Origin: Candidatus Enterousia sp. | Lineage (GTDB): Bacteria > Pseudomonadota > Alphaproteobacteria > Rs-D84 | Length of the DNA stretch: 46,660 nt | Assembly (NCBI GenBank): GCA_045648885.1 | Contig: JAZROV010000014.1 | Coordinates: 1-46,660, forward strand | Direction: 5' to 3' | In this document: piece by piece, positions 1,648 through 46,660 of the stretch | Position numbering within the stretch: position 1 is the stretch's first letter | Layout of the letters: the number at the start of each line of letters is the position of its first letter | Position numbers and translations under genes: made by a program | The notes under the pieces: generated by a model | The model's database searches: none | What the model saw: only the letters and a program-made list of their open reading frames with translations | What the model was told of the DNA's origin: nothing

Positions 1648-2426
1648 TTTCGATGCGCCTTTTGTTCTGATTTTACCAACACAGATTCATTTTTAGGAAT
1701 CGGACCATCATACGTAATATGCCCGTCATAGATATGTATAACGCGTCGCGCGTATTGCGCAATTTCAAATTCGTGAGTAATCATAACTATCGTTATACCG
1801 ATATCTTGGTTTAATTTTTTGAAAAACCGCAAGATTTCATTCCCCATTTTGGAATCTAATGCCCCGGTTGGTTCGTCTGCCAGAATGATTTTTGGATCGC
1901 CTGCCAATGCACGCGCAATCGCAACACGCTGTTTCATACCACCAGACAATTGAGTCGGCAAATAAGTTTCAAATTTTTCCAGATTTACCAATTTCAACAT
2001 TTCACGCGCACGCGATTCACGCTCTGCCATCGGCAAACCACGATACATCAATGGCAACATCACATTATCCAAAATATTGCGTTTCGGCAGCAAATTAAAA
2101 TTTTGAAACACAAAGCCAATATATTCATTGCGAACGCGCGCTAATTCATCCGGGGTCATGGTAGTAATGTCTTTGCCATACAATTCATACGTCCCAGACG
2201 TCGCAGAATCTAATGCCCCAATAATATTCATACATGTTGATTTACCAGACCCCGACGGTCCCATAATCGCAACAAATTCCCCCGGCATAACGCTGAACGT
2301 GTTGTCAAATAAAACCTGCTGCTGCCCGCCGATTTCCAGCGGATACGTCTTGCAGATTTTTTTCATAGAAATTATTGGTGTCTGTTTCATATCTTCGACC
2401 TTAACGTGGGCCACCGCCTGGGCCAC
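1644..2426 (-). CDS. ABC transporter ATP-binding protein, MacB/LolD-like (true start may be 2390)
   Basis: Walker A GPSGSGKS, signature LSGGMKQRVAIARAL, Walker B ILADEPT. Confidence 0.93.
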   Translation of the reverse strand: MAQAVAHVKVEDMKQTPIISMKKICKTYPLEIGGQQQVLFDNTFSVMPGEFVAIMGPSGSGKSTCMNIIGALDSATSGTYELYGKDITTMTPDELARVRNEYIGFVFQNFNLLPKRNILDNVMLPLMYRGLPMAERESRAREMLKLVNLEKFETYLPTQLSGGMKQRVAIARALAGDPKIILADEPTGALDSKMGNEILRFFKKLNQDIGITIVMITHEFEIAQYARRVIHIYDGHITYDGPIPKNESVLVKSEQKAHRK

Positions 2427-3576
2427 CCATCATACCATTGCGTTTCGCCGCAGATTTAGACGCCTGGCCGACATAGCCAACTATGATTTTATCACCGTCA
2501 ACAATTTCGTCTGATATAATCTGGGTTTCTGTGGCGGTCGATAAACCTTTGGTATATTTTACGAAAACTATATCTTTGTCGCGTTTTATTGCTAAATGCG
2601 TTTTCGGCGTGACATCAGCATCTGGAACCGCAACTATATCGTCAAAAGACCGCAATAAAAATGCAGAATTTTGCGCTTTCCATGTGTCTTTGGCCGCCTG
2701 GATAATAATCGTCACGAACGCAGTCATACCCGGCATCAAACGCAAATCAGAATTATCTACGTCAATCACAACCGTATAAACAACAACGTTCGAAGTCATT
2801 GTCGGCGACAAACGAATCTGGCGCACCGAACCTTCAAATTTCTGGTTCGGATATGCGTCCACAGTGAATGTCACAGATTGTCCCTCTTTGATAACACCGA
2901 TGTCCGCTTCGGATACAGATGTTTCAATCTGCATTTTGGTTAAATCTTCGGCAATTTCAAACAAATCAGGCGTCTGAAACGATGCAGCCACCGTTTGACC
3001 TTTGTCCACTTTGCGCGAAATCACAGTTCCATCAACCGGCGAAGTAATCGTCGCATAGCCCAAATTTGTCACCGCACGATTGTATGTGTATTTCATTTGA
3101 TTGACACGTTGTTCCGCCTGTTCGAATGTCGTCTGAGATTGTTCCATTTCTGCGCGCGAGATATACCCGTCGTTATAAAGTGTTTTATTGCGTTCATATT
3201 CTGATTTAGCATATTTTAATTGTGATTCAGCAGACACCAGCGACGCTTTGGCTTCGTCAACCGACGATTGCAAAACAGATGTATCAATTTTCAACAATAA
3301 ATCGCCCTGCTTTACTTTCGAATTATAATCAACATACAATTCTTCAATGGTACCAGAAACCTGGGACCCAACACTGACCGTGTTCAACGGCATAATTTCC
3401 CCGGTTGCAGTCACTGTCTGGGACAAATTTCCGCGCGTAATATCGACTGTGACATAACTTTTGGCAGTCTTTGATTTACCGCCAATACCCAAAATCAAAA
3501 TACACCCGACAATCGCCAACAAAAAAATGGTCAGCCATTTATGACGTAAAACCCAAAATTTCTTTTTCTTATTCAT
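2401..3576 (-). CDS. Efflux periplasmic adaptor subunit, MacA-like
   Basis: N-terminal TM helix, VGSQVSG lipoyl-like motif, helical hairpin, SPVDG..GQTVAASFQTP; lies between tolC and the ABC genes. Confidence 0.9.
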   Translation of the reverse strand: MNKKKKFWVLRHKWLTIFLLAIVGCILILGIGGKSKTAKSYVTVDITRGNLSQTVTATGEIMPLNTVSVGSQVSGTIEELYVDYNSKVKQGDLLLKIDTSVLQSSVDEAKASLVSAESQLKYAKSEYERNKTLYNDGYISRAEMEQSQTTFEQAEQRVNQMKYTYNRAVTNLGYATITSPVDGTVISRKVDKGQTVAASFQTPDLFEIAEDLTKMQIETSVSEADIGVIKEGQSVTFTVDAYPNQKFEGSVRQIRLSPTMTSNVVVYTVVIDVDNSDLRLMPGMTAFVTIIIQAAKDTWKAQNSAFLLRSFDDIVAVPDADVTPKTHLAIKRDKDIVFVKYTKGLSTATETQIISDEIVDGDKIIVGYVGQASKSAAKRNGMMGGPGGGPR

Positions 3577-4888
3577 TCATCTCTCCCTCTAATTCAGAGC
3601 GCAAATCACCAATCGCCAACGCCACGGCAGCACGTTTAATAAATAAATCATATTTCGCACTGTTGCGCTGATTTTTCGCATTCACTAATTCAGATTGCGC
3701 CGTCTGCCAATCTAACATTGTCGCACGTCCAACCTTGTACATTCCGGACGTCACACGTTCGCTTTCTGTTGCAGATTTTAATAATGATTCAGTTTGATCC
3801 AACACAGTCCGCGCAGTCTTGTAATTCTGATATGCAGTAAAAACATCCATCATCGCATTATTGTTCGTCGCCAATTCATTATATTTTGCACGTTCATAGT
3901 CCGCTTCGGCTGCGCGTAAATTATACATATTGGCAAAGCCTGCAAACAACGGCATCGATGCGCGAATACCAATCGACCCGTTTGTTTTATTTGATTCAAA
4001 CATATTCGACAAATCATCATTGTTCCAACCCACCGATGCACTGGCAGAAATTGACGGTAAATTTTTCAAGAACGCGCTGTTTCGTTTATGCCACGCGGCA
4101 TCTTTGTTCGCACGCGCACGCAGCAAATCAGGTCTTTTTTCTTGGGCAATTTTTATCAATTCATCAATACTTTCATTTTCTGCATCGCTTCCAAAAGACG
4201 AAGACATATCTGCAATTTTTATATCCTGGTCTGCCGGAAAAGAAAGTTTGTTTAACAATGTCGCTTTTGTAATTTCACGATTGTTTTTTGCGCGTTCCAA
4301 TGCCAATTTAGAAGACGCCAATGTGGTTTCAGATTTATAAACGTCGGCTTTAGCCACCGCCCCAGCCTTAAACTTTTTTGATGCAGTATCATATGCAGTC
4401 TGGGCCACAGTCAACGCAGATTGCGCCGCATCGACATTCGCATTTGCGTTTAATAATTCATAATAAGAACCGACCAAACCATAAACAAAATTTTGAACGG
4501 TTTCACTGTAATCAAAACCGGCCGCACGATATGCCGATATCAATTGATTCATATCAGATGTCCGTTTACCAAAATCAAAAATCAAATACGAAGCAGAAAT
4601 CGATGCACCATACGACCAATCTTGCCATTGTTTATCCCTGTAATCTTTACCAGCCGAAACCGACGCAGACACATTTGGCAAATAATTTGCATAGCCTGCA
4701 TTTTTACTGAAATGCGATGCACGCAGCGACTGATACGCCGCCGCAGTTTGTGGATTACGACACAGGCCCAATTCAATAACATCTTGCAATGATTGTTCGG
4801 AATCTGGCATATTGCGCATTGTTGCACAATCATCTGACCCGAATGCAACAGACGGCAAAACACACAGCGCAACAAACCATCGTTTCAT
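3569..4888 (-). CDS. TolC-family outer membrane efflux protein
   Basis: Signal peptide, two OEP-type repeats, position at the head of the MacAB-type operon. Confidence 0.88.
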   Translation of the reverse strand: MKRWFVALCVLPSVAFGSDDCATMRNMPDSEQSLQDVIELGLCRNPQTAAAYQSLRASHFSKNAGYANYLPNVSASVSAGKDYRDKQWQDWSYGASISASYLIFDFGKRTSDMNQLISAYRAAGFDYSETVQNFVYGLVGSYYELLNANANVDAAQSALTVAQTAYDTASKKFKAGAVAKADVYKSETTLASSKLALERAKNNREITKATLLNKLSFPADQDIKIADMSSSFGSDAENESIDELIKIAQEKRPDLLRARANKDAAWHKRNSAFLKNLPSISASASVGWNNDDLSNMFESNKTNGSIGIRASMPLFAGFANMYNLRAAEADYERAKYNELATNNNAMMDVFTAYQNYKTARTVLDQTESLLKSATESERVTSGMYKVGRATMLDWQTAQSELVNAKNQRNSAKYDLFIKRAAVALAIGDLRSELEGEMNE

Positions 4889-4974
4889 TGAAAAAAACTC
4901 CTACAATACAATGATATTTATCCTATCAGAGATTATGAAAATTTACAACAAAAATTAAATTTTGTTATAAAAAT

Positions 4975-5004
4975 AAAAACATCGTCAAACTGGACGATGT
5001 TTTT
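4975..5004. terminator. Intrinsic terminator after nrdG
   Basis: AAAAACATCGTC-AAACTG-GACGATGTTTTT hairpin. Confidence 0.75.
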
Positions 5005-5018
5005 ATCGATTTTAAATT

Positions 5019-5768
5019 TTATTTATCACGCCAGATTACACTTTCAAACATTGCATCTATTTTTTGACGCAATTCTTCATCTACAAAAAATTGCATTCTG
5101 GCCGCGTCAGTCGTTTGCGGATGCGTATTGTCATTGTGTGTTTCGTTATGACATCCACATTTTTCGCAATCACATTCATGATACGGACTATATTTTTGAA
5201 CTGCGAAATTTTTAGCGCCCATTGACGACGTAATTTGTGCAATTTCTAATAAATCAGTTTTGCTGACGTATTCAGGATCACAGGTTGTGCGCACTTCCAA
5301 TCCGCGTCCAGTTGACACCCAATATTTCAAAGATTCAATCATACGGTCATAGCCAACTTCAACCCCAGTTAAATCTTTATATCGTGCCTTGGTCGCTTTG
5401 AAATCAAGCCCAACCCAATCAACCGTGTCTGACACTTTCTTTAATAAATCTGGATAAAAACCATTTGTATGCAATCCGATTGCGAAACCCAATTCACGCA
5501 CACGACGCATATAATCAATCGTCGCATCGGCCTGCATCAATGCTTCACCGCCGGAAAAAACAACGCCCTCTAATTTTCCAACACGGTTTTTCAACCATTC
5601 GAAAACTTTATCCGGATCGTATTCCCCATCACCCAATGGTATCAGATGCGGATTCGAACAATACGCGCATTTAAACGGACATCCACAAAGAAATAATACA
5701 GCGGCCAGTTTCCCCGGAAAATCAATCGTTGTAAAGGAAACCAGGCCGCCAATTTGAATTTGTTTCAT
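5019..5768 (-). CDS. nrdG: Anaerobic ribonucleotide reductase activase (radical SAM)
   Basis: CPFKCAYC (CxxxCxxC), SGGE and GLHTNG motifs; adjacent to nrdD. Confidence 0.9.
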   Translation of the reverse strand: MKQIQIGGLVSFTTIDFPGKLAAVLFLCGCPFKCAYCSNPHLIPLGDGEYDPDKVFEWLKNRVGKLEGVVFSGGEALMQADATIDYMRRVRELGFAIGLHTNGFYPDLLKKVSDTVDWVGLDFKATKARYKDLTGVEVGYDRMIESLKYWVSTGRGLEVRTTCDPEYVSKTDLLEIAQITSSMGAKNFAVQKYSPYHECDCEKCGCHNETHNDNTHPQTTDAARMQFFVDEELRQKIDAMFESVIWRDK

Positions 5769-5783
5769 GTTGACAATGAACCC

Positions 5784-5963
5784 TTATGCGGCCTTTTTCA
5801 TCAATTCTACGTGACGCGCACCAGTTGTCAAACAATTCGATTCAGTGAATGTTTTACGTTCGCAAAATTCAGCATATTTTCCTGTATTAAAATTGCTGAC
5901 AGGTCTGATATATCCCATTGCACGTGAAAATTTTTCGCATGGTGTTCTGGTTTGTGGGTTCAT
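5784..5963 (-). CDS. 59-aa NrdD C-terminal glycyl-radical module, absent from the ORF track
   Basis: Own SD (GGAAAGGAG). Translates MNPQTRTPCEKFSRAMGYIRPVSNFNTGKYAEFCERKTF..., matching the NrdD C-terminal SRxxGYxRPV..N.GK..EF..R motif. Confidence 0.88.
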   Translation of the reverse strand: MNPQTRTPCEKFSRAMGYIRPVSNFNTGKYAEFCERKTFTESNCLTTGARHVELMKKAA

Positions 5964-25964: not shown

Positions 25965-28900
25965 TTAAAATGCTTTGAATCTGTATGTTGTTCCTGCGCG
26001 GAATGAAACATCCGAACTGGACACGCCGGCACCCGCATTCACAGACCATCTCTTAGACAATCCCATCGCAGCACCGAACGCAGCAGCCGATTGACCATTG
26101 TAATATCCATATCCGCCACTGACTGCCACTTCACCCTTTTGCACGCCGGACGCAGCCACAGATGTCAACGCAATCGCACTGGCGATACCAGAAGACAAAT
26201 CTTTGTCCAATTTTTCGATACGTTGATCGGTGTACGCGACAGATTGATTCAGCGTCAAAGCATTATTCGCTGCCATTGCATTATTCAACGTTGCAATCGC
26301 AGCCGTATTTCCATTGATTGCGACTGTGTTTTCATCGATTGCGCCCTGGATAGTTGTCGCAGTCAACCCAGACACAGTATTATCATAATCTGCATCTGCC
26401 GCAGTATTTTTCACAGTATTCGCAACCGAACCAGCGATATCCACACCACCGTTCAGCGTCAATATTGCATCAGCATTTGTTTTCGCCTGGGTATCCAACG
26501 CGGTCAACGCAGCCCCCACAGTATGTGTTGCATCTGCATCGACATACGAATTGGTTGTTGAATCGTATCCATTAGACCCAGCGATATAATTGCCTGCATT
26601 CCAATCGCCCAGTTGATCATGCATACTTGAATTATTCACCAATTTATTACTGAACACGACATCGTCACCGTCTTGGGTAACATCGGTATAATAATTCATA
26701 TTGCCCGAGAAAGTTAAATCATCGGCCAACGCAGCACCACTAAGATTCAACGTATACGAACCCTGGGATCCATATTCATTTGAAACGATGTTGATGTTTT
26801 TGACCACAGATGTTGATGCATCCGCAAAGCGGTCGATATCACCCGATACACTGGCCAATTCAGCATCGACATACAAATCTGCACCGGACACAGTCCCAGA
26901 CACATTATCTATCGCTTTGTTTTGCGTATTCAAATTTCCGCCGACCAAAGCGCCATCGAAATCTGCACCCAACGCCAATTTCACAGTATTCCCGGACGCA
27001 GTGTTATTAAAGTGCGTTGTTCCGTTGACTAAATTCGTCACCCCAGAACCGGTAATTGTTGCGCCCGATTCGAAAGTGACATCATTTGTCATATTTGCAA
27101 CACCATTATTTGCTAATACCGCTGTTGCTGTGAATGTATCGTTATCGAACGACGCAGTCCCTGTATTTGTGACTGTCGCAGAATACGTTGTCGGGTCAGA
27201 ATACAGCGTCCCCGCATTATTCAACGCGACATTAACATTTGAATTATTGATGTACAACACGGCTGTTTCGACATTGTTCAGCGCACCGTTTCCTGCCAAT
27301 TTCAAATCGTTGATTTCAACAATTGCGCCATCTGCGATTGTCAAATTCGCATCAGCCAATTCCAGCCCCTGGTCAGCATCATCAATTCCGTCGCCATTCA
27401 GCACGAAATTGTTTTGAATTTGTTTACTGATTGCCAATTGTTCATCTTCGGTCAATTGATATTGGATATTTTGAACTGTCGCAGACGCATCAGCCGCCGC
27501 CGCGACACCGCCGTCAAATCCGCGAACAATCATACTGCCATCGGCCGCAGACGTAGATTCGAACGTCGCACCATTTTCAGACGTCCATTGTGCTTCGCTG
27601 ATATCGACAGTCGCACCGTCAGACACGACCTGGATAGTTTTTGAACCTTTGCCAATATTGCCGATTAAATTACCGACTTTGTAATTGACAGTACTGCCCG
27701 AACCCGCAGCATACATATCTGCGACCCCGTCCAAGAAATTAACGTCGCCTTTGATATTGGCATTGTTATTCAAAGAGATAATTCCCGAATAATCATTGAT
27801 GACGTTATCAATAGTATTGATTGTCCCGCCACCATTGACAGTCATCACAGACCCGGCCAAATTAGAACCATCTGTCGCGCCATCCGACAACCACAATTCT
27901 GCGCCATTTACGACAGTGATTGTCTGGTTATTTATCGCGCCAGTTAAATTGACCGTCCCAGTACCTTTGATATTGACTTTGTTTGTTGCCAACGTGCTGG
28001 ATGCGCCATTAATACCGCCGTCCATTGCGAAATTTAACACATCATCAGCGGCAGCTGTGATATTGACAATGCCAGTGTTATAAATATCGCTGACATTTTC
28101 TTCGGCATTATTTTTGCTGCCACTGAACGATGTATCACCTGCGAAATTGACGATACCTTTGTTATAAATTATTCCGTCTTCGGCGACGTTATTTGTAAAT
28201 TCCGACGCCCCGTTGAAATTCACAGTCGAACTGGCAACATTATAAATTACACCTTTGCCGTACGAATCGTTATGGTTCACGACCAGACCATCACCAAAGG
28301 TTATCGTTGAATTAGCAGAATTATTATTCGCGACCACACCATCACCATTCATATAAACCCATGTAGAACCACCGCCTAAATCGAACAATGGGTCATGGTT
28401 ATCTTGGAACAACGCGTTATCGCCAATAGTTATACTGCTGCCATTTCCTTTGTTTGCCAAAGTAATAAACTGAGAATTTTTGAATTGCGCATTATCGCCG
28501 ATTACATAAGACCCACCGAAATTAGTAATCACACTGCCGTTGTAATCAAATACAGCATTATCACCGATAACGTGCACTGTGTTGCCTTCGTTATTAAGCG
28601 CTTGGCCGATATTGTGGAAATATGCATTATCGCCGATTGTGGTATGGCTGCCATTCATAGTAAAGATACCGGTATCATAGGCATCATCATAAATCGGGTC
28701 TTGATATGTTGTACGTGTGAACACCGCATTATCCCCGATGGTCAAAGTTCCAAAATTTTTGACATCGCTGCCACCGTATGGGTTTGAACCGTATTCAGCG
28801 GTATTATCTTTGAACAGCGCATTATCACCAACCGACAAATTTCCACCATTCGCATTATAAATCGCGCCCCCAGATTTTGAAGAGTTTCCAACGAAAGACG

Positions 28901-29387
28901 TATCATCACCAATTGTCATTGTACCGCTGTTGTAAATGGCGCCACCACCAATCGTCACAGTATTATTATTGAACGAAGTATTGGTTATATGTGCAGTACC
29001 TGTATTATAAATCGCACCACCCCACACAGAAGAATTATTTGTAAATGTTGAATTTGATATATCTAATACATTCCAGTTATTGATAATACCATTATAACCA
29101 TTTGAATTCCCGTTTTCCAAAGTTCCGAAAATCACATTGTCCAAAGTTAAATTACCACCATTTTCAACGATTGCCCAATCATTAGCAGCCCGTTCAGACA
29201 CGCCTGAAAAGGTTTCATTTGAAATAGTCAATTGGGTTCCATTGCCAACATTCAATGGCAATGTTGTTTCTGCCATTGCAGGTGCGGCGACCAGGCCTAA
29301 TGCGATGGCATTACATAAAATACCACGTTTCAAGACCGCCGAATACATCGCGGATAATTCTTTGATGGTTGTCTGTGATTGTTTCAT
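25965..29387 (-). CDS. Trimeric autotransporter adhesin with YadA-like anchor and Pmp-like beta-helix passenger
   Basis: SD AAAGGAG before ATG 29387, extended signal peptide, FxxN..GGAIYN and IGDNAxF repeats, coiled stalk, C-terminal SGIASAIAL...GYYNGQSAAAFG...F anchor. Confidence 0.85.
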   Translation of the reverse strand: MKQSQTTIKELSAMYSAVLKRGILCNAIALGLVAAPAMAETTLPLNVGNGTQLTISNETFSGVSERAANDWAIVENGGNLTLDNVIFGTLENGNSNGYNGIINNWNVLDISNSTFTNNSSVWGGAIYNTGTAHITNTSFNNNTVTIGGGAIYNSGTMTIGDDTSFVGNSSKSGGAIYNANGGNLSVGDNALFKDNTAEYGSNPYGGSDVKNFGTLTIGDNAVFTRTTYQDPIYDDAYDTGIFTMNGSHTTIGDNAYFHNIGQALNNEGNTVHVIGDNAVFDYNGSVITNFGGSYVIGDNAQFKNSQFITLANKGNGSSITIGDNALFQDNHDPLFDLGGGSTWVYMNGDGVVANNNSANSTITFGDGLVVNHNDSYGKGVIYNVASSTVNFNGASEFTNNVAEDGIIYNKGIVNFAGDTSFSGSKNNAEENVSDIYNTGIVNITAAADDVLNFAMDGGINGASSTLATNKVNIKGTGTVNLTGAINNQTITVVNGAELWLSDGATDGSNLAGSVMTVNGGGTINTIDNVINDYSGIISLNNNANIKGDVNFLDGVADMYAAGSGSTVNYKVGNLIGNIGKGSKTIQVVSDGATVDISEAQWTSENGATFESTSAADGSMIVRGFDGGVAAAADASATVQNIQYQLTEDEQLAISKQIQNNFVLNGDGIDDADQGLELADANLTIADGAIVEINDLKLAGNGALNNVETAVLYINNSNVNVALNNAGTLYSDPTTYSATVTNTGTASFDNDTFTATAVLANNGVANMTNDVTFESGATITGSGVTNLVNGTTHFNNTASGNTVKLALGADFDGALVGGNLNTQNKAIDNVSGTVSGADLYVDAELASVSGDIDRFADASTSVVKNINIVSNEYGSQGSYTLNLSGAALADDLTFSGNMNYYTDVTQDGDDVVFSNKLVNNSSMHDQLGDWNAGNYIAGSNGYDSTTNSYVDADATHTVGAALTALDTQAKTNADAILTLNGGVDIAGSVANTVKNTAADADYDNTVSGLTATTIQGAIDENTVAINGNTAAIATLNNAMAANNALTLNQSVAYTDQRIEKLDKDLSSGIASAIALTSVAASGVQKGEVAVSGGYGYYNGQSAAAFGAAMGLSKRWSVNAGAGVSSSDVSFRAGTTYRFKAF

Positions 29388-29538
29388 GGGGTTCTCTCCT
29401 TTGCTTATATTCCTAATGCCCAGCATAGCGAGTTAAAGGAAATAAATCAAATATTTCTTGTCCGCACCACCCACCGCGCGTTTGGGTGTATATACATAAA
29501 AACGAATCGCCCCGCTTGTCATTACGACGAAGCCTAAG

Positions 29539-30065
29539 TTCTCCCCCAACGGGGGAGTACGTTCGAAGAACGGGAGGGGGGTTACCCCCACCACCGCAAG
29601 CGGTCCCCCGCGCCCACGGGGCGGAATTTGGCTTGGGTGCATTGCTTGTTATTCTCCCCCAACGGGGGAGTGCGGCGCCAGCCGGAGGGGGGTCACCCCC
29701 ACCACCGCAAGTGGTCCCCTCCCCCCACGGGGGAGAATTTATTCCGCGACAAAGCCTAAGTTCTCCTCCGCCGGGGGAGTACGGCGCCAGCCGGAGGGGG
29801 GTCACCCCCACCACCGCAAGTGGTCCCCTCCCCCCACGGGGGAGAATTTAGTCTGCAACGTGTCCGCAATTCTCCCCCAACGGGGGAGTACGGCGCAGCC
29901 GGGAGGGGGGTCACCCCCACCACCGCAAGCGGTCCCCCGCCCCCATGGGGCGGAATTTAGCCTGGGTGCATTGCTTGTTATTCTCCCCCAACGGGGGAGT
30001 ATGCCCCACCCTTGCGGAGGGGCCGACGAGATAAAGCGTCAGCGTAAATCGAGTCGAGGGCGGGT
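29539..30065. repeat. Tandem array of GC-rich REP/BIME-like palindromic units
   Basis: Units start at 29539, 29652, 29761, 29870 and 29981 (periods 113, 109, 109, 111 bp). Each is an inverted pair joined at GGGGGT(C/T)ACCCCC. A variant unit lies at about 30001-30065. Confidence 0.9.
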
Positions 30066-30114: not shown

Positions 30115-30286
30115 CCGCCCCCGCATCGAACCAACGGTTCTCTGCGACCCCGCCGCAAGGGCGGGGTTTACAATTTTTACCCCGCCGCTGACGCGGCGGG
30201 GAAAACGCATTACGCATTACGCGGTAACGGCCGTTTCGTCCGTGGCCGACGGCAATTCGCATACTCGGCCGACGCATTGTCGGCCC
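30115..30286. other. Cluster of GC-rich hairpins immediately 3' of the Cys-rich gene
   Basis: On the minus strand: GGCCGAC-AATGC-GTCGGCC, CCCCGCCGC-GTCA-GCGGCGGGG and ACCCCGCC-CTTGC-GGCGGGGT. Confidence 0.7.
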
Positions 30287-30296
30287 TTTCGCTACA

Positions 30297-30764
30297 TCAA
30301 TTTGTCGCGACCGAACCAAAAAGCCCCGCGCGGCGCGAAGCGTGGGACCGGACGCCGGCGCCGCAGTTGCTCGTGCAATTCGACGCGCAATCGGGAGCTG
30401 AGCTGAACGTGTTGGAGAAAGCCCAAAGCGACACCGCCGGATGAGTCATTTTACACCAACAATATCTACCATTTTGTTCACCACCAATGACGCGCGCGCC
30501 ACTGTCACTTAACTGGCTGACGGTACCACCCAAAGATTTGCTGTAATTCGATGATAAACAGGCGCTGACGCCGCTGACGGTGCCCCAACTGAACGTCGTA
30601 GTCCATTTCCCAACGTTATTGTCATAATCGTACCCCGTCCCGTTATTGGTCGGGTCCAATATGACCGCGACATTATCATTTTGGACGCACATAGTCGTTG
30701 AAAAAGCCGGCGCAATAAATGCCAGCGCGCATGCACATGATGCAATTATTTTGATTGTTTTCAT
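30297..30764 (-). CDS. Secreted Cys-rich protein, candidate DGR target
   Basis: SD GGAAAGGG, signal peptide, YCWCKM..W...CxxxCxxxC C-terminus, adenine-poor GC-rich 3' segment. Confidence 0.75.
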   Translation of the reverse strand: MKTIKIIASCACALAFIAPAFSTTMCVQNDNVAVILDPTNNGTGYDYDNNVGKWTTTFSWGTVSGVSACLSSNYSKSLGGTVSQLSDSGARVIGGEQNGRYCWCKMTHPAVSLWAFSNTFSSAPDCASNCTSNCGAGVRSHASRRAGLFGSVATN

Positions 30765-30951: not shown

Positions 30952-31590
30952 TTATTTTGTGCGGTTGCTGTATTGCAACAACAACACGGCAATATCTAAA
31001 TTCGGCAAAATTTTTCCGTCGCCACGCGCCGACATAATATAGCCCTGTTGTTTCGGGTTAAATTGAATTGTAATATCGGGTTGCAAACCTGCTGCATGAA
31101 AATCTTCCAGATTACATGTGTTTGTTTGACGCACACGCATATCATCTGGCATATTTTGACGATTTTTAACGACTGATTTCGAATTTAACATCGGTTGAAA
31201 CCACATAATTTTAAAATCATAGTTGTTAGCCAACCGTTTTTTGTGGAACCAATCTATCATCTGGCGAACATAACGCGGTTGAATCACGTCGTATGTAAAA
31301 TTTTGGCCGATGTGGTCAAAAATCTCAAATTCTGGCACGCCGTAAAGCCATTTCGGAACACCCGGTTTCCAGAATGCTTCGTTGACCCAAAGTTTAGTAG
31401 CAAATTTTTCGGTTTCAAAATATTTTTCATCACGAAAATAATATTCGCGACCGTTCATTTCGCCGTCGCGCATAGGACGTGTTGTAGCAGATTTCAAATT
31501 ATAAAACGAATTTATTGGTAAAACATTTTGTATAAAATAACTTTTGCCACTGCCGGACAGACCTGTACAAAATAAAACTGTATTTTTCAT
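30952..31590 (-). CDS. Divergent guanylate kinase-like P-loop protein
   Basis: GLSGSGKS P-loop and SATTRPMRDGEMNGREYYF guanylate-kinase signature. Start set at ATG 31590 after AGGGG. Confidence 0.7.
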   Translation of the reverse strand: MKNTVLFCTGLSGSGKSYFIQNVLPINSFYNLKSATTRPMRDGEMNGREYYFRDEKYFETEKFATKLWVNEAFWKPGVPKWLYGVPEFEIFDHIGQNFTYDVIQPRYVRQMIDWFHKKRLANNYDFKIMWFQPMLNSKSVVKNRQNMPDDMRVRQTNTCNLEDFHAAGLQPDITIQFNPKQQGYIMSARGDGKILPNLDIAVLLLQYSNRTK

Positions 31591-31644
31591 TTTTTGTCCC
31601 CTTTGGTTCAAAAAAGCCCGCAAAAATCATGCGGGCGGGTTTGT

Positions 31645-33744
31645 TTAATCTTCCAAGAAACTGCGCAGTTTGCGAGCGCGGGTTGGATGCTTTAATTTAT
31701 TCAGCGCTTTTTGTTCAATCTGGCGGATGCGTTCACGTGTGACGCCGATGTATTCGCCGACTTCTTCCAAAGTGCTGGTTTTATTCGTAGACATACCAAA
31801 ACGTTGACGCAAGACCGTTTCTTCTTTTGGATCCAATTCAGATAAAATCTGGGTGACGATTTTACGCAAATTCTTTTGCGCCGCCGATGTAAACGGATTT
31901 TTCGCAGTTTCGTCAGCAATGATTTCTATGCGCGAACTGTCGTCTTCGGTGCCGACTGGCGCTTCCAAAGAAATCGGGCGCAGATTGACTTTCATTGCTT
32001 TGTGAATCTTGTCGACCGGCAGATATATAATCTTTGACAATTCTTCGGCAGTTGGTTGACGCCCGTATTTATGCATAAACTGACGCGATGCACGTTGAAT
32101 TTTATGAATGTTATCAATCATATGCACCGGGATACGGATAGTGCGCGCCTGGTCTGCGATGCTGCGCGAAATACCCTGTTGTATCCAATTCGTGGCATAG
32201 GTAGAAAATTTATTACCCAAACGATAATCGAATTTATCCACCGCTTTCATCAAACCGATATTGCCGTCTTGGACCAAATCTGAAAAATCAAGCCCCAGAC
32301 CGCGGTTGCTAGATTTTTTTGCAAATTTGATAACCAGACGTAAATTTGCTTCTATCATTTCGCGTTTTGCGCGCGCCGCTTCGGCCTGGCCACGACGAAC
32401 CAATTCGACCACTTTCTTGTATTCTGCGGTTGGTTGACCGGTTTCTTGAGCAATTGCCGTAATATCTTCTTGGATTTTCAAGACGTTTTCTTGGTGGGTT
32501 TTTGCGAAATTCTGCCATGCAGCACTTTTGTTTTTCGCCAATTTCTTTACCCAATTACGATTTAATTCGTTTCCAACGTATTCAGCCAAGAAATCTTCAC
32601 GTTTAATTTTGCACGCCAACGCCAGACGTAACATACGACCTTCAAGTCCCATCAGCAACTGGTCACGCTGGGTCAATTTTTCCATAATTTCGGCAATTCT
32701 GTCGTCATTCAGACGAATTTTACCCACGTATTCGAATAATTCCAGGCGCGCTTTGTTATATTTCTTTTCCAATGTTTCATCCGGTTTAGAAGATGTAATC
32801 AAATTTTCCAGACGTTTTGTTTGCAATTTCTGCATACCTGTAAATATGCGTTTTATCTTTGCAAAAAGTTCGGTTATCATCGGCAAAAGCGCTTCTTCCA
32901 TAACCGGAATTGGAACGCCCGACGAACCACGCTGAGAATCGTCTTTTTTGCCATCTTCGTCGTCATCATCGTCCAAATCGTCATCGTCGTCATCATCTTC
33001 ATCAGATGCGACTGATTCTTCTAAATCATCCAAATCATCATCGTTTAAATCGTCAACCTGGTCTACACCCTTGGATTTCAAAGTGTCATTCAAAACAGCC
33101 AAAGATTTTTGTTCAGATTCACTGGAATACATCACTTCCAAATTTATGATGTGACGCAAACGAATATCGCCATTCAGCAATTGTTGATACCAATCTAACA
33201 TCGCCTGGATGGTCATAGGGCTTTCGCAAAGGCCATATACCATCAAACGAGATGCTGCTTCAATACGTTGCGCAATTGCGATTTCACCAGCAGCGGTCAA
33301 CAATTGAACCGTACCAATTTGTTTCAAATACGATTGAACAGAATCTTGGACACCCAACACCAGATTACCAGTCGAACTGCGTTCCAATTGTTTTGCATAA
33401 TATTCGTAATCTTCGTCGTTGACGTCAACCTGCTCTGCGTCAGCATTCAATAAATCACGGGTTTTATCACGATTATAGTTTTCATCGTCTTCTTCATAAT
33501 ATTTTTCCATTTCGCGGGAAAATCTGTCTGGATCTGTTTCCAGAACTTCCAAGCCCAAATCTTGTTTAAAGAAATCTAAGACTTCTTGTTGTTCTTCGTC
33601 CGGGACTTCATCGGCCTGGATAGCGGCATCAAAATCCATTTTGGACAAATATCCAACTTCGTTCGCAGACAACGCTAATTCTTTAAGACTTTCTGGCAAA
33701 GAATCTATCAATAATGTCGTCGCTTCGTCTAGTTTTTTAGCCAT
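31645..33744 (-). CDS. rpoD: RNA polymerase primary sigma factor
   Basis: Region 1.2 DSVQSYLKQIG, acidic non-conserved region, EANLRLV, ADQARTIRIPVHM, TLEEVG..VTRERIRQIE. Confidence 0.95.
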   Translation of the reverse strand: MAKKLDEATTLLIDSLPESLKELALSANEVGYLSKMDFDAAIQADEVPDEEQQEVLDFFKQDLGLEVLETDPDRFSREMEKYYEEDDENYNRDKTRDLLNADAEQVDVNDEDYEYYAKQLERSSTGNLVLGVQDSVQSYLKQIGTVQLLTAAGEIAIAQRIEAASRLMVYGLCESPMTIQAMLDWYQQLLNGDIRLRHIINLEVMYSSESEQKSLAVLNDTLKSKGVDQVDDLNDDDLDDLEESVASDEDDDDDDDLDDDDDEDGKKDDSQRGSSGVPIPVMEEALLPMITELFAKIKRIFTGMQKLQTKRLENLITSSKPDETLEKKYNKARLELFEYVGKIRLNDDRIAEIMEKLTQRDQLLMGLEGRMLRLALACKIKREDFLAEYVGNELNRNWVKKLAKNKSAAWQNFAKTHQENVLKIQEDITAIAQETGQPTAEYKKVVELVRRGQAEAARAKREMIEANLRLVIKFAKKSSNRGLGLDFSDLVQDGNIGLMKAVDKFDYRLGNKFSTYATNWIQQGISRSIADQARTIRIPVHMIDNIHKIQRASRQFMHKYGRQPTAEELSKIIYLPVDKIHKAMKVNLRPISLEAPVGTEDDSSRIEIIADETAKNPFTSAAQKNLRKIVTQILSELDPKEETVLRQRFGMSTNKTSTLEEVGEYIGVTRERIRQIEQKALNKLKHPTRARKLRSFLED

Positions 33745-46226: not shown

Positions 46227-46445
46227 TAAAAATCAAACCGACTTTTGTCGGTTTTATTTTTATCTGGGTCACCCCAGGGTTCGAACCGAAAAGCAGGTTC
46301 GACCCGCAGACGAAAGGCAGACGGAAGTATGCCGGTTCGCAAAGCGAATGAGTCAAGGGCGTGAAGCAAAGCGTAACAATCCCGCTGGGTGCGCCATAAA
46401 AATCAAACCGACTTTTGTCGGTTTTATTTTTATCTGGGTCACCCC
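46208..46445 (+). repeat. 68-bp direct repeat (tRNA 3' end plus terminator), 170-bp period, RtT-like
   Basis: 46208-46275 and 46378-46445 differ at one position. Confidence 0.88.
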
Positions 46446-46660
46446 CACCACCCTGCGGGTCCCCCGCCCCCGTGGGGCGGAATTTATTCCGCGACGAGTG
46501 CTAAGTTCTCCTCCGCCGGAGGAGTACGGCGCCAGCCGGGAGGTGGGGGTATTTGAACATACTTATTCTTTTTCACCCCCACCCCGCCCGTTGGGCACCC
46601 CTCCGTGGGAGGGGAACTTTTTTCCGCGACAAGTGCAAAGATTCTCCCCCACGGGGGGAG
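46437..46660. repeat. REP-like palindrome cluster running off the right edge
   Basis: Same modules and TTCCGCGAC linker as the 29539-30000 array; copies match 60-109 and 30856-30897. Confidence 0.88.

Follow-up and report, generated by a model that had tools for sequence, protein, structure and literature searches.

Why should the 3′ end of a small gene abruptly become poor in adenine, and what kind of element would leave such a segment behind? The question is raised by a 46,660-nucleotide (nt) stretch of DNA from Candidatus Enterousia sp., an alphaproteobacterium of the Rs-D84 lineage, which we refer to as the window and which is the entire contig C14 (JAZROV010000014.1) of an 835,793-base assembly (GCA_045648885.1) that comprises 21 contigs and is 94.5% complete. 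On its minus strand the open reading frame (ORF) list places a gene for a 155-amino-acid (aa) protein at 30297..30764, with a TGA stop at 30297-30299. Our answer is that the minus-strand segment 30307..30441 of this gene is very probably the variable region (VR) of a chromosomal diversity-generating retroelement (DGR) that works in trans, its template and reverse transcriptase (RT) lying on another contig of the same genome.

The shift in composition is sharp. Across the 135 nt of 30306-30440, read on the coding strand, there are 13 A, 47 C, 44 G and 31 T; TGC is used three times, and a third-position A occurs in a single codon (TCA) out of 45; the 324 nt upstream within the gene contain 88 adenines (27%). 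GC content is 0.62-0.67 at 30250-30449 compared with 0.46-0.53 deeper in the gene and a contig mean of 0.409, and just 0.059% of the 1,665,958 genomic 135-nt windows, counted on both strands, have 13 or fewer adenines. The original prediction, made from the letters of the window, had described this composition, and its adenine count, single third-position A, three TGC codons and quoted codon strings all agree with ours; the segment is real, with boundaries off by one base, as the repeat spans 30307-30441 and not 30306-30440. The encoded protein begins with a hydrophobic, signal-like N terminus (residues 1 to about 22). A database search returned 57 metagenomic homologues of comparable length (58 proteins including the window's own), and no match was found in Pfam (E ≤ 1), NCBIfam, PHROG or the sequences of the Protein Data Bank (PDB; E ≤ 10).

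A counterpart of the segment lies elsewhere in the genome. A search of the assembly recovers a 135-nt sequence of 90% identity on the minus strand of contig C20 (G000:C20:37543-37677), hereafter template repeat 1 (TR1). The two copies differ at 14 positions, 13 of which are adenines in TR1 and one of which is T in the template and G in the VR; changes have thus befallen 13 of the 26 template adenines but only 1 of the 109 other bases (Fisher p = 3e-10). Because the differences coincide with the adenines of the C20 copy, we read that copy as the template and the one in the window as the VR. A scan of the whole assembly in which template A was treated as a wildcard returned TR1 and the window VR only, and the reading frame of TR1 is open for 59 aa only, without homology upstream of the repeat. 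The copy differing almost only at adenines that had been foreseen elsewhere in the genome is therefore TR1, and the suggestion of a remote target of a DGR encoded elsewhere is borne out by TR1 and a Brt-like RT on C20. The description of the VR as an orphan holds for the window, in which neither template nor RT is present (an RT query matches C20 only, and the wildcard scan agrees), but not for the genome.

An origin without any retroelement, either by insertion of a GC-rich repeat or by gene conversion and selection among paralogues, would draw on the setting of the gene, which is embedded in GC-rich repeats and has 12 other family members available for sequence exchange. The flanking repeat was nevertheless ruled out as the origin of the A-poor segment, with which it has no similarity; the sole close match of the segment is a non-coding copy beside an RT, with adenine-specific differences; and no part of the family is better conserved than the segment once its mutable codons are set aside. 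We regard such an origin as extremely improbable.

If a DGR has written this segment, the family should vary where the template has adenines, and the homologues bear this out. The VR covers residues 109-152, and the codon table of TR1 and VR, together with the variability of homologues, delimits a mutable core at 30342..30416 (minus strand, codons 117-141). Sixteen template codons contain adenine; that of codon 122 (TCA), in third position, is silent, leaving 15 that can be recoded (117-121, 125, 129, 131-133, 136, 137 and 139-141), ten of them AAY and the others ACG, AGC, GAT, ACG and CAG. Enumeration gives TR1 a repertoire of 5.9e14 protein variants with zero reachable stop codons. We aligned 47 of the 58 proteins, dropping 11: seven short or near-duplicate rows (P0017, P0026, P0032, P0038, P0042, P0044, P0051) and the four weakest partial matches (P0055-P0058). 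Column entropy in this alignment is 2.68 bits at the 15 A-templated positions and 0.66 bits at the 29 other VR positions, with 1.54 bits in residues 26-108; CWCKMTHP, W114, C130, C134, R145 and FGS are invariant. With this peak at A-templated columns, hypervariability of the residues across the family coincides exactly with the template adenines, as had been anticipated for adenine-derived codons.

The machinery expected of a DGR is found on C20. Downstream from TR1, on the same strand, follow a non-coding stretch of ~250 nt, an ORF of 108 aa (C20:36966-37289, minus strand) between this spacer and the RT, and an intact RT of 344 aa (C20:35922-36956, minus strand), 587 nt downstream of TR1. The RT matches the profiles RVT_1 (E = 1.1e-13) and phrog_1423 (E = 1.1e-98). 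Its best solved structure is 8ub7_A (E = 9.5e-46, full length), which we identify as Brt because the aligned residues are identical to those of the Bordetella phage BPP-1 record; RTs of group II introns and retrons follow at E = 1e-19 or weaker. The C20 enzyme shares 30% identity with the annotated Brt of BPP-1 over 318 aa (E = 7e-53), and its IGNLTSQ, a type of motif that we take to be a DGR hallmark, lines up with IGSLTSQ in Brt. Matching phage records number 156, including crAss-like phages, the ANMV-1 virus and five Bordetella phage records, and these phage relatives are DGR-bearing phages. The RT query found one copy in the assembly.

By analogy, the conserved stretch after TR1 would be the spacer RNA of the DGR. 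In the BPP-1 prototype, a 140-nt spacer downstream of the TR primes complementary DNA (cDNA) synthesis and wraps the RT-Avd complex (bioRxiv 10.1101/2023.10.23.563531). Here, a stretch of ~230 nt is conserved after TR1, after a second template (TR2, below) and after the TRs of three other species; the sequences downstream of TR1 and TR2 share 73% identity over 231 nt. A consensus structure, drawn from five sequences only, has 41 pairs, of which seven show compensatory changes, and an Rfam scan of the cassette found no family at E ≤ 1. The 108-aa accessory protein (isoelectric point (pI) 8.5) is predicted to form a β-barrel plus a helix and looks like a protein with an oligonucleotide/oligosaccharide-binding (OB) fold, as judged from its model; its profile aligns with BPP-1 Avd at an hhalign probability of 0.1%. 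The original prediction had placed the template beside an RT and an avd-like gene, of which the Brt-like RT is there and an OB-fold-like gene stands in the position of the other. The nearest phage RT, that of Caudoviricetes sp. vir525 (46.8% identity), was considered as a source of the OB-fold gene and rejected, as in vir525 a tail-protein target lies directly upstream of the RT and no accessory gene is found between the two.

Downstream of the RT, C20 also encodes five secreted proteins, all on the minus strand (L008:178-1449, 1954-3051, 3481-4503, 4538-5086 and 5046-5852). The first three have a common signal peptide and an N-terminal TSYV.GAYN motif, and a Pfam scan of one of the five gave no match. 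Possibly they are another family of surface proteins that clusters with the DGR cassette.

The window's gene is one of several targets in this genome. A tblastn search found 12 further family members, and these show the CWC..W..C...C...C..R..FG ending by which paralogues had been expected to be recognised. In the majority, which are secreted and ~400 aa long, a tail resembling Listeria-Bacteroides repeats (Flg_new, E = 2e-4, under the Pfam cut-off) comes after the domain. For these there is a second, non-coding template repeat, TR2 (L009:7953-8087 = G000:C2:179952-180086), with 30 adenines, 487 nt from the contig end. TR2 is adjoined by its own copy of the spacer, with no accessory gene or RT, and matches VRs at 11 paralogous sites on contigs C1, C3, C6, C7, C9, C11, C12, C15 and C20, which are internal to their genes and are followed by a tail of ~60 aa. 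At each of the 11 sites, 13-21 of the 30 adenine positions are mismatched, and the non-adenine mismatches number zero at five sites, one at one site, four at two, five at one, eight at one (with an in-frame TGA) and 17 at one. Since TR2 has a spacer but no RT beside it and a single RT was found, the C20 enzyme probably serves both templates. Together the 13 family genes occupy ~13.1 kb, or 1.6% of the genome, in stop-to-stop lengths of which several are cut by contig ends; many TR2-type genes lie at such ends, so the family itself breaks the assembly. For comparison, a survey of 372 DGRs gives maxima of eight targets within one cassette and of seven that are non-adjacent (PMC5758913).

How far does the system extend beyond this genome? 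A profile of the target domain, built from the 47 sequences, was searched in 41 genomes and found in 18 of the 24 other genomes of the same genus and in none of the 16 from other genera of the order. The RT has a match in 8 of those 24, seven of them close and that of G013 distant (33% identity), so the scaffold persists without the DGR: it seems either to survive loss of the retroelement or to rely on something that the RT query missed. No RT match was found in G001 (19 domain matches, 89% complete) or G020 (10 matches, 96% complete). In G003, an assembly of two contigs, the cassette is canonical, with a 150-aa orthologue and its VR, then TR, accessory gene and RT in succession on one strand; in G007 (L023, G007:C2:80000-92000) the target lies between accessory gene and RT with the TR upstream of both, and within the core TR and VR differ at template adenines only. 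Cassette order thus varies between the two genomes. The accessory gene occurs in 7 of the 41 genomes, always in an RT cassette; it adjoins the RT in six, the target intervening in G007. It is present in all seven genomes in which the cassette region is assembled, the eighth with a close RT having that RT at a contig start, and among the 41 genomes none without a close RT has it. Among 1.84 billion cluster representatives, a profile search for the target domain gave 1,440 matches at E ≤ 0.001 and 526 at E ≤ 1e-10, among them proteins of 4,750 and 6,218 aa carrying five to six copies. An open frame of 3,974 aa with at least five domain copies is also present in G009:C10.

Even with C14 and C20 abutting at their nearest ends, VR and TR1 would be at least 16,219 + 6,772 = 22,991 bases apart, which makes the VR a non-adjacent target. 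Phage BPP-1 requires an initiation of mutagenic homing (IMH) element and a cruciform, and both the end of the present VR and a hairpin beyond it agree with that picture. The last 35 nt of the VR (30307..30341, minus strand; residues 142-152 plus the initial two bases of codon 153) are GC-rich with an A-free sequence, and by their position would constitute an IMH-like homing segment. A GC-rich hairpin with a 7-bp stem and a 5-nt loop (30267..30285, minus strand) starts 22 nt downstream of the VR and, by the same analogy, may have a role in target recognition. Folding detects hairpins of unlike sequence 18-24 nt downstream of the orthologous VRs in G003 and G007 and none there after the templates; after the internal, TR2-type VRs there are weak, inconsistent stems only.

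Could the VR nonetheless be a relic, the frozen footprint of past DGR writing whose homing to a remote copy has ended? Target and TR1/RT are on different contigs, whereas the G003 orthologue adjoins its cassette, and the domain is commoner in the genus than the RT (18 vs 8 of 24). Several further observations weigh against an active DGR acting on this VR. One TR1/VR mismatch is not at an adenine; it falls within the homing segment, where codon 144 changes from Leu to Arg. The 116-nt stretch with the hairpin folds barely better than its shuffles (z = -1.59). No match to Avd (PF05635) was found in this 94.5% complete genome, and it is from gene linkage only that we infer replacement of Avd by the OB-fold-like protein. 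The assembly is incomplete and in 21 contigs, so that the distance between TR and VR is a lower bound and the RTs and VRs counted may be too few. An RT match is also lacking in most of the congeners searched, as noted above. Lastly, the public data bearing on ongoing diversification of the VR are assembled contigs from four runs, and contigs cannot reveal variants within a sample.

Those contigs place the locus in bovine, goat and other gut metagenomes. The TR1 locus, known by its flanks, is present in three runs from three studies, where the plus strand reads T at the mutable positions. In run X1 the contig with the gene ends at 30476, and among the contigs listed the sole piece on 30307-30441 is the TR locus, with loose ends. 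Run X4 contains a diverged target gene, with 37 differences and five gaps over 538 nt, from a strain ~7% diverged upstream in the gene. Its VR is another allele at template-A positions, with the template base at seven or more positions that are mutated in the window VR, and its only listed non-adenine difference (30432) is common to its own TR contig. This pattern fits homing after the strains diverged, and a non-adenine variant held in common by TR and VR is what recent homing predicts. Other evidence also speaks against a relic: 1 of 109 non-adenine bases has changed here, in contrast to the 8 and 17 non-adenine mismatches of decayed VRs in the same genome; the RT, accessory gene and spacer are intact; and cases of DGRs with remote targets have been described (Wu et al. 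2018, PMC5758913). We therefore consider a relic unlikely, and continue with the VR as part of a probably working DGR.

What does this DGR diversify? An AlphaFold model of the target, built from the 47-sequence alignment, has a mean predicted local distance difference test (pLDDT) score of 81.7, with values of about 95 for residues 40-150. It comprises strands at 44-48, 53-58, 61-70, 101-106 and 114-119 and helices at 123-140 and 142-150, and from this secondary structure the VR takes in the final strand together with the two helices. Residues 117-121 of the mutable set lie where that strand ends, and others are spread along helix 123-140. The original prediction had proposed a helical CxxxCxxxC scaffold, and the motif is indeed α-helical in the predicted fold. 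On an ideal helix, seven of the nine variable helix positions lie within 220-340 degrees, and 0-180 degrees is occupied by Cys126, Cys130, Cys134, Ala127, Thr131, Gly135 and Val138. Cys69, Cys102 and Cys104 on the modelled sheet are candidate disulfide partners of the helix cysteines.

The VR domains of DGRs have C-type lectin folds, with rare and uncertain exceptions, in the view set out in PMC5758913 and PMC8144416. Searching the target model with Foldseek returned no PDB chain at E ≤ 0.001, a missing match that need not mean a different fold, and no match at E ≤ 0.001 was found in the viral structure library BFVD. The best feature score in the ESM Atlas (0.81) is uninformative, and the family profile of 47 sequences aligns with Mtd at an hhalign probability of 0.2%. 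No immunoglobulin (Ig)-domain chain is among the fold matches listed, and the predicted VR is largely helical. Most likely, judging from the model, the target domain is a scaffold other than the C-type lectin fold; any claim of a new fold is limited, because the absence of a fold match does not prove one. The disulfide stapling and the new protein class that the original prediction had put forward remain possibilities. A highly diverged C-type lectin, and with it an ordinary DGR target, would rival this view of the scaffold and leave the DGR itself untouched. The CLec2 and CLec3 classes of VR were initially unrecognised as lectin folds, according to Wu et al. 2018 (PMC5758913); the present model is a prediction from 47 related sequences, and failed fold searches do not show that folds differ. 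We see a hidden lectin fold as possible but rather doubtful, and retain a non-lectin scaffold as the preferred description.

We propose the following mechanism. The TR1-spacer RNA would be reverse-transcribed with random misincorporation opposite adenines, and the resulting cDNA would replace the 3′-terminal VR of the gene for the 155-aa target. Homing would be steered by the A-free, GC-rich 3′ homology and perhaps also by the downstream hairpin. The variable residues within 117-141 would be recoded without stops and displayed at the end of a β-strand and on one face of a C-terminal helix, while on the opposite face the invariant CxxxCxxxC ladder would pack onto the sheet with the CWC motif, probably through disulfide bonds. 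The product would be a small exported protein with a hypervariable and probably ligand-binding surface. The same RT most likely serves the TR2-spacer on C2 as well, and would thereby diversify about nine secreted paralogues of ~400 aa. Of this picture, the adenine-specific differences of TR and VR, the kinship of the RT, the conserved cassette, the variability across the family and the predicted secondary structure are observations, whereas present activity, the details of priming and homing, the disulfides, the export of the target to the surface and its binding of a ligand are inferred.

The surroundings of the target contain further features. Downstream of the gene lies an array of four to five GC-rich repeats of ~110 nt (29525..30003), with further copies in the window at 60-152 and 46436-46535; the repeat contains the palindrome CTCCCCCAACGGGGGAG. 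Genome-wide there are 36 matches forming 27 clusters, 14 of them no more than 1 kb (in most cases 12-300 nt) from a gene of the DGR-target family, 11 within 400 nt of a contig end and two elsewhere. Ten of the 13 family genes have a copy within 300 nt, the three others being the gene with the most decayed VR (C9), C15:4078-4605, a short paralogue without a template match, and a C3 gene cut by a contig end. The repeat may mark the boundary of a cassette, act as a recombination site or provide a signal for transcription.

The genes neighbouring this chromosomal DGR include rpoD, a gene for a YadA-type adhesin, rfbC and a clpB-like gene. Just downstream of the target, past the repeat array, the product of 25965-29426 (minus strand) has 1,153 aa and contains a membrane anchor of YadA type (PF03895, E = 7e-9), as in trimeric autotransporter adhesins. 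Upstream, 30952-31623 (minus strand) has a weak, partial guanylate-kinase match (E = 5e-5, under the Pfam cut-off, residues 19-69), and after this gene comes an rpoD with a long acidic insert at 31645-33744.

Structural work on DGRs has so far yielded one recurring answer to massive variation, the C-type lectin fold. The present data lead us to favour, at somewhat better than even chances, a second and non-lectin DGR scaffold, in which a sheet is joined to a helix hairpin stapled by a ladder of cysteines and the free helix face is mutable. It would belong to a large, unannotated family (the 1,440 representatives above) and, in a genus of gut Alphaproteobacteria with small genomes, be served by an Avd-less DGR with an OB-fold accessory, in which one RT uses two template-spacer RNAs to vary at least ten genes, which make up ~1.6% of 0.84 Mb. 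No description of the target family or of an OB-fold DGR accessory was found in the literature, a statement that extends to PMC5758913 and PMC8144416 short of their supplementary catalogues, where a prior listing is possible. If true, variability on a helix face without detectable relation to lectins or Ig domains would be an independent solution to tolerating massive protein variation, and a domain of ~130 residues would offer a compact scaffold for engineered, DGR-based protein evolution. An OB-fold-like accessory in the place of Avd would bear on the minimal needs of a DGR ribonucleoprotein, and about ten targets for one RT and two template-spacer RNAs in 0.84 Mb suggests that surface variation is central to how these gut bacteria live.

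The prototype for comparison is the DGR of BPP-1 (mtd-VR, avd, TR, brt). The two have TR and VR of similar length (~134-135 nt, 134 being annotated in BPP-1), adenine-specific mismatches, a target ORF whose 3′-terminal VR closes in an A-free, GC-rich segment, RTs that are 30% identical over their full length and a structured non-coding spacer after the TR. Unlike the phage-borne prototype, the present DGR is chromosomal, with at least 23 kb separating target and cassette; it has a second template, no Avd was found in this genome and a 108-aa OB-fold-like protein is encoded between spacer and RT. Its target lacks profile similarity to Mtd and has a different predicted fold. Avd is required by the prototype phage DGR. 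It is not universal among DGRs (PMC5758913), and architectures A (TR-RT only) and E (with a CH1 accessory) of Wu et al. 2018 likewise have no avd, a small conserved gene of an unknown family being linked to the RT as here. CH1 proteins are described as 160-169 aa long and acidic, with a pI of about 4.7 (PMC5758913); the present accessory, with its 108 aa, pI of 8.5 and OB-fold-like prediction, is set apart from them by description, not by sequence.

In its targets the system can also be compared with two other DGRs. Like that of Treponema denticola (TvpA), it is cellular and has several non-adjacent targets that encode exported proteins. The Treponema targets have lectin domains of the FGE-sulfatase type and the cassette has an HRDC accessory gene, as given in PMC5758913; here, by contrast, the target has no Pfam match, and two templates with 1 + 11 VR-like sites are found in a genome of 0.84 Mb. 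The LdtA/DUF1566 (CLec2) lipoproteins of Legionella are also small and exported, with conserved cysteines and little beyond the VR domain, whereas the present target has no DUF1566 match and its VR is predicted to be helical and not part of a lectin fold. The system is thus of a known kind, a DGR, and departs from its described relatives in predicted target fold, in accessory protein, in having two templates per RT and in the number of targets for so small a genome.

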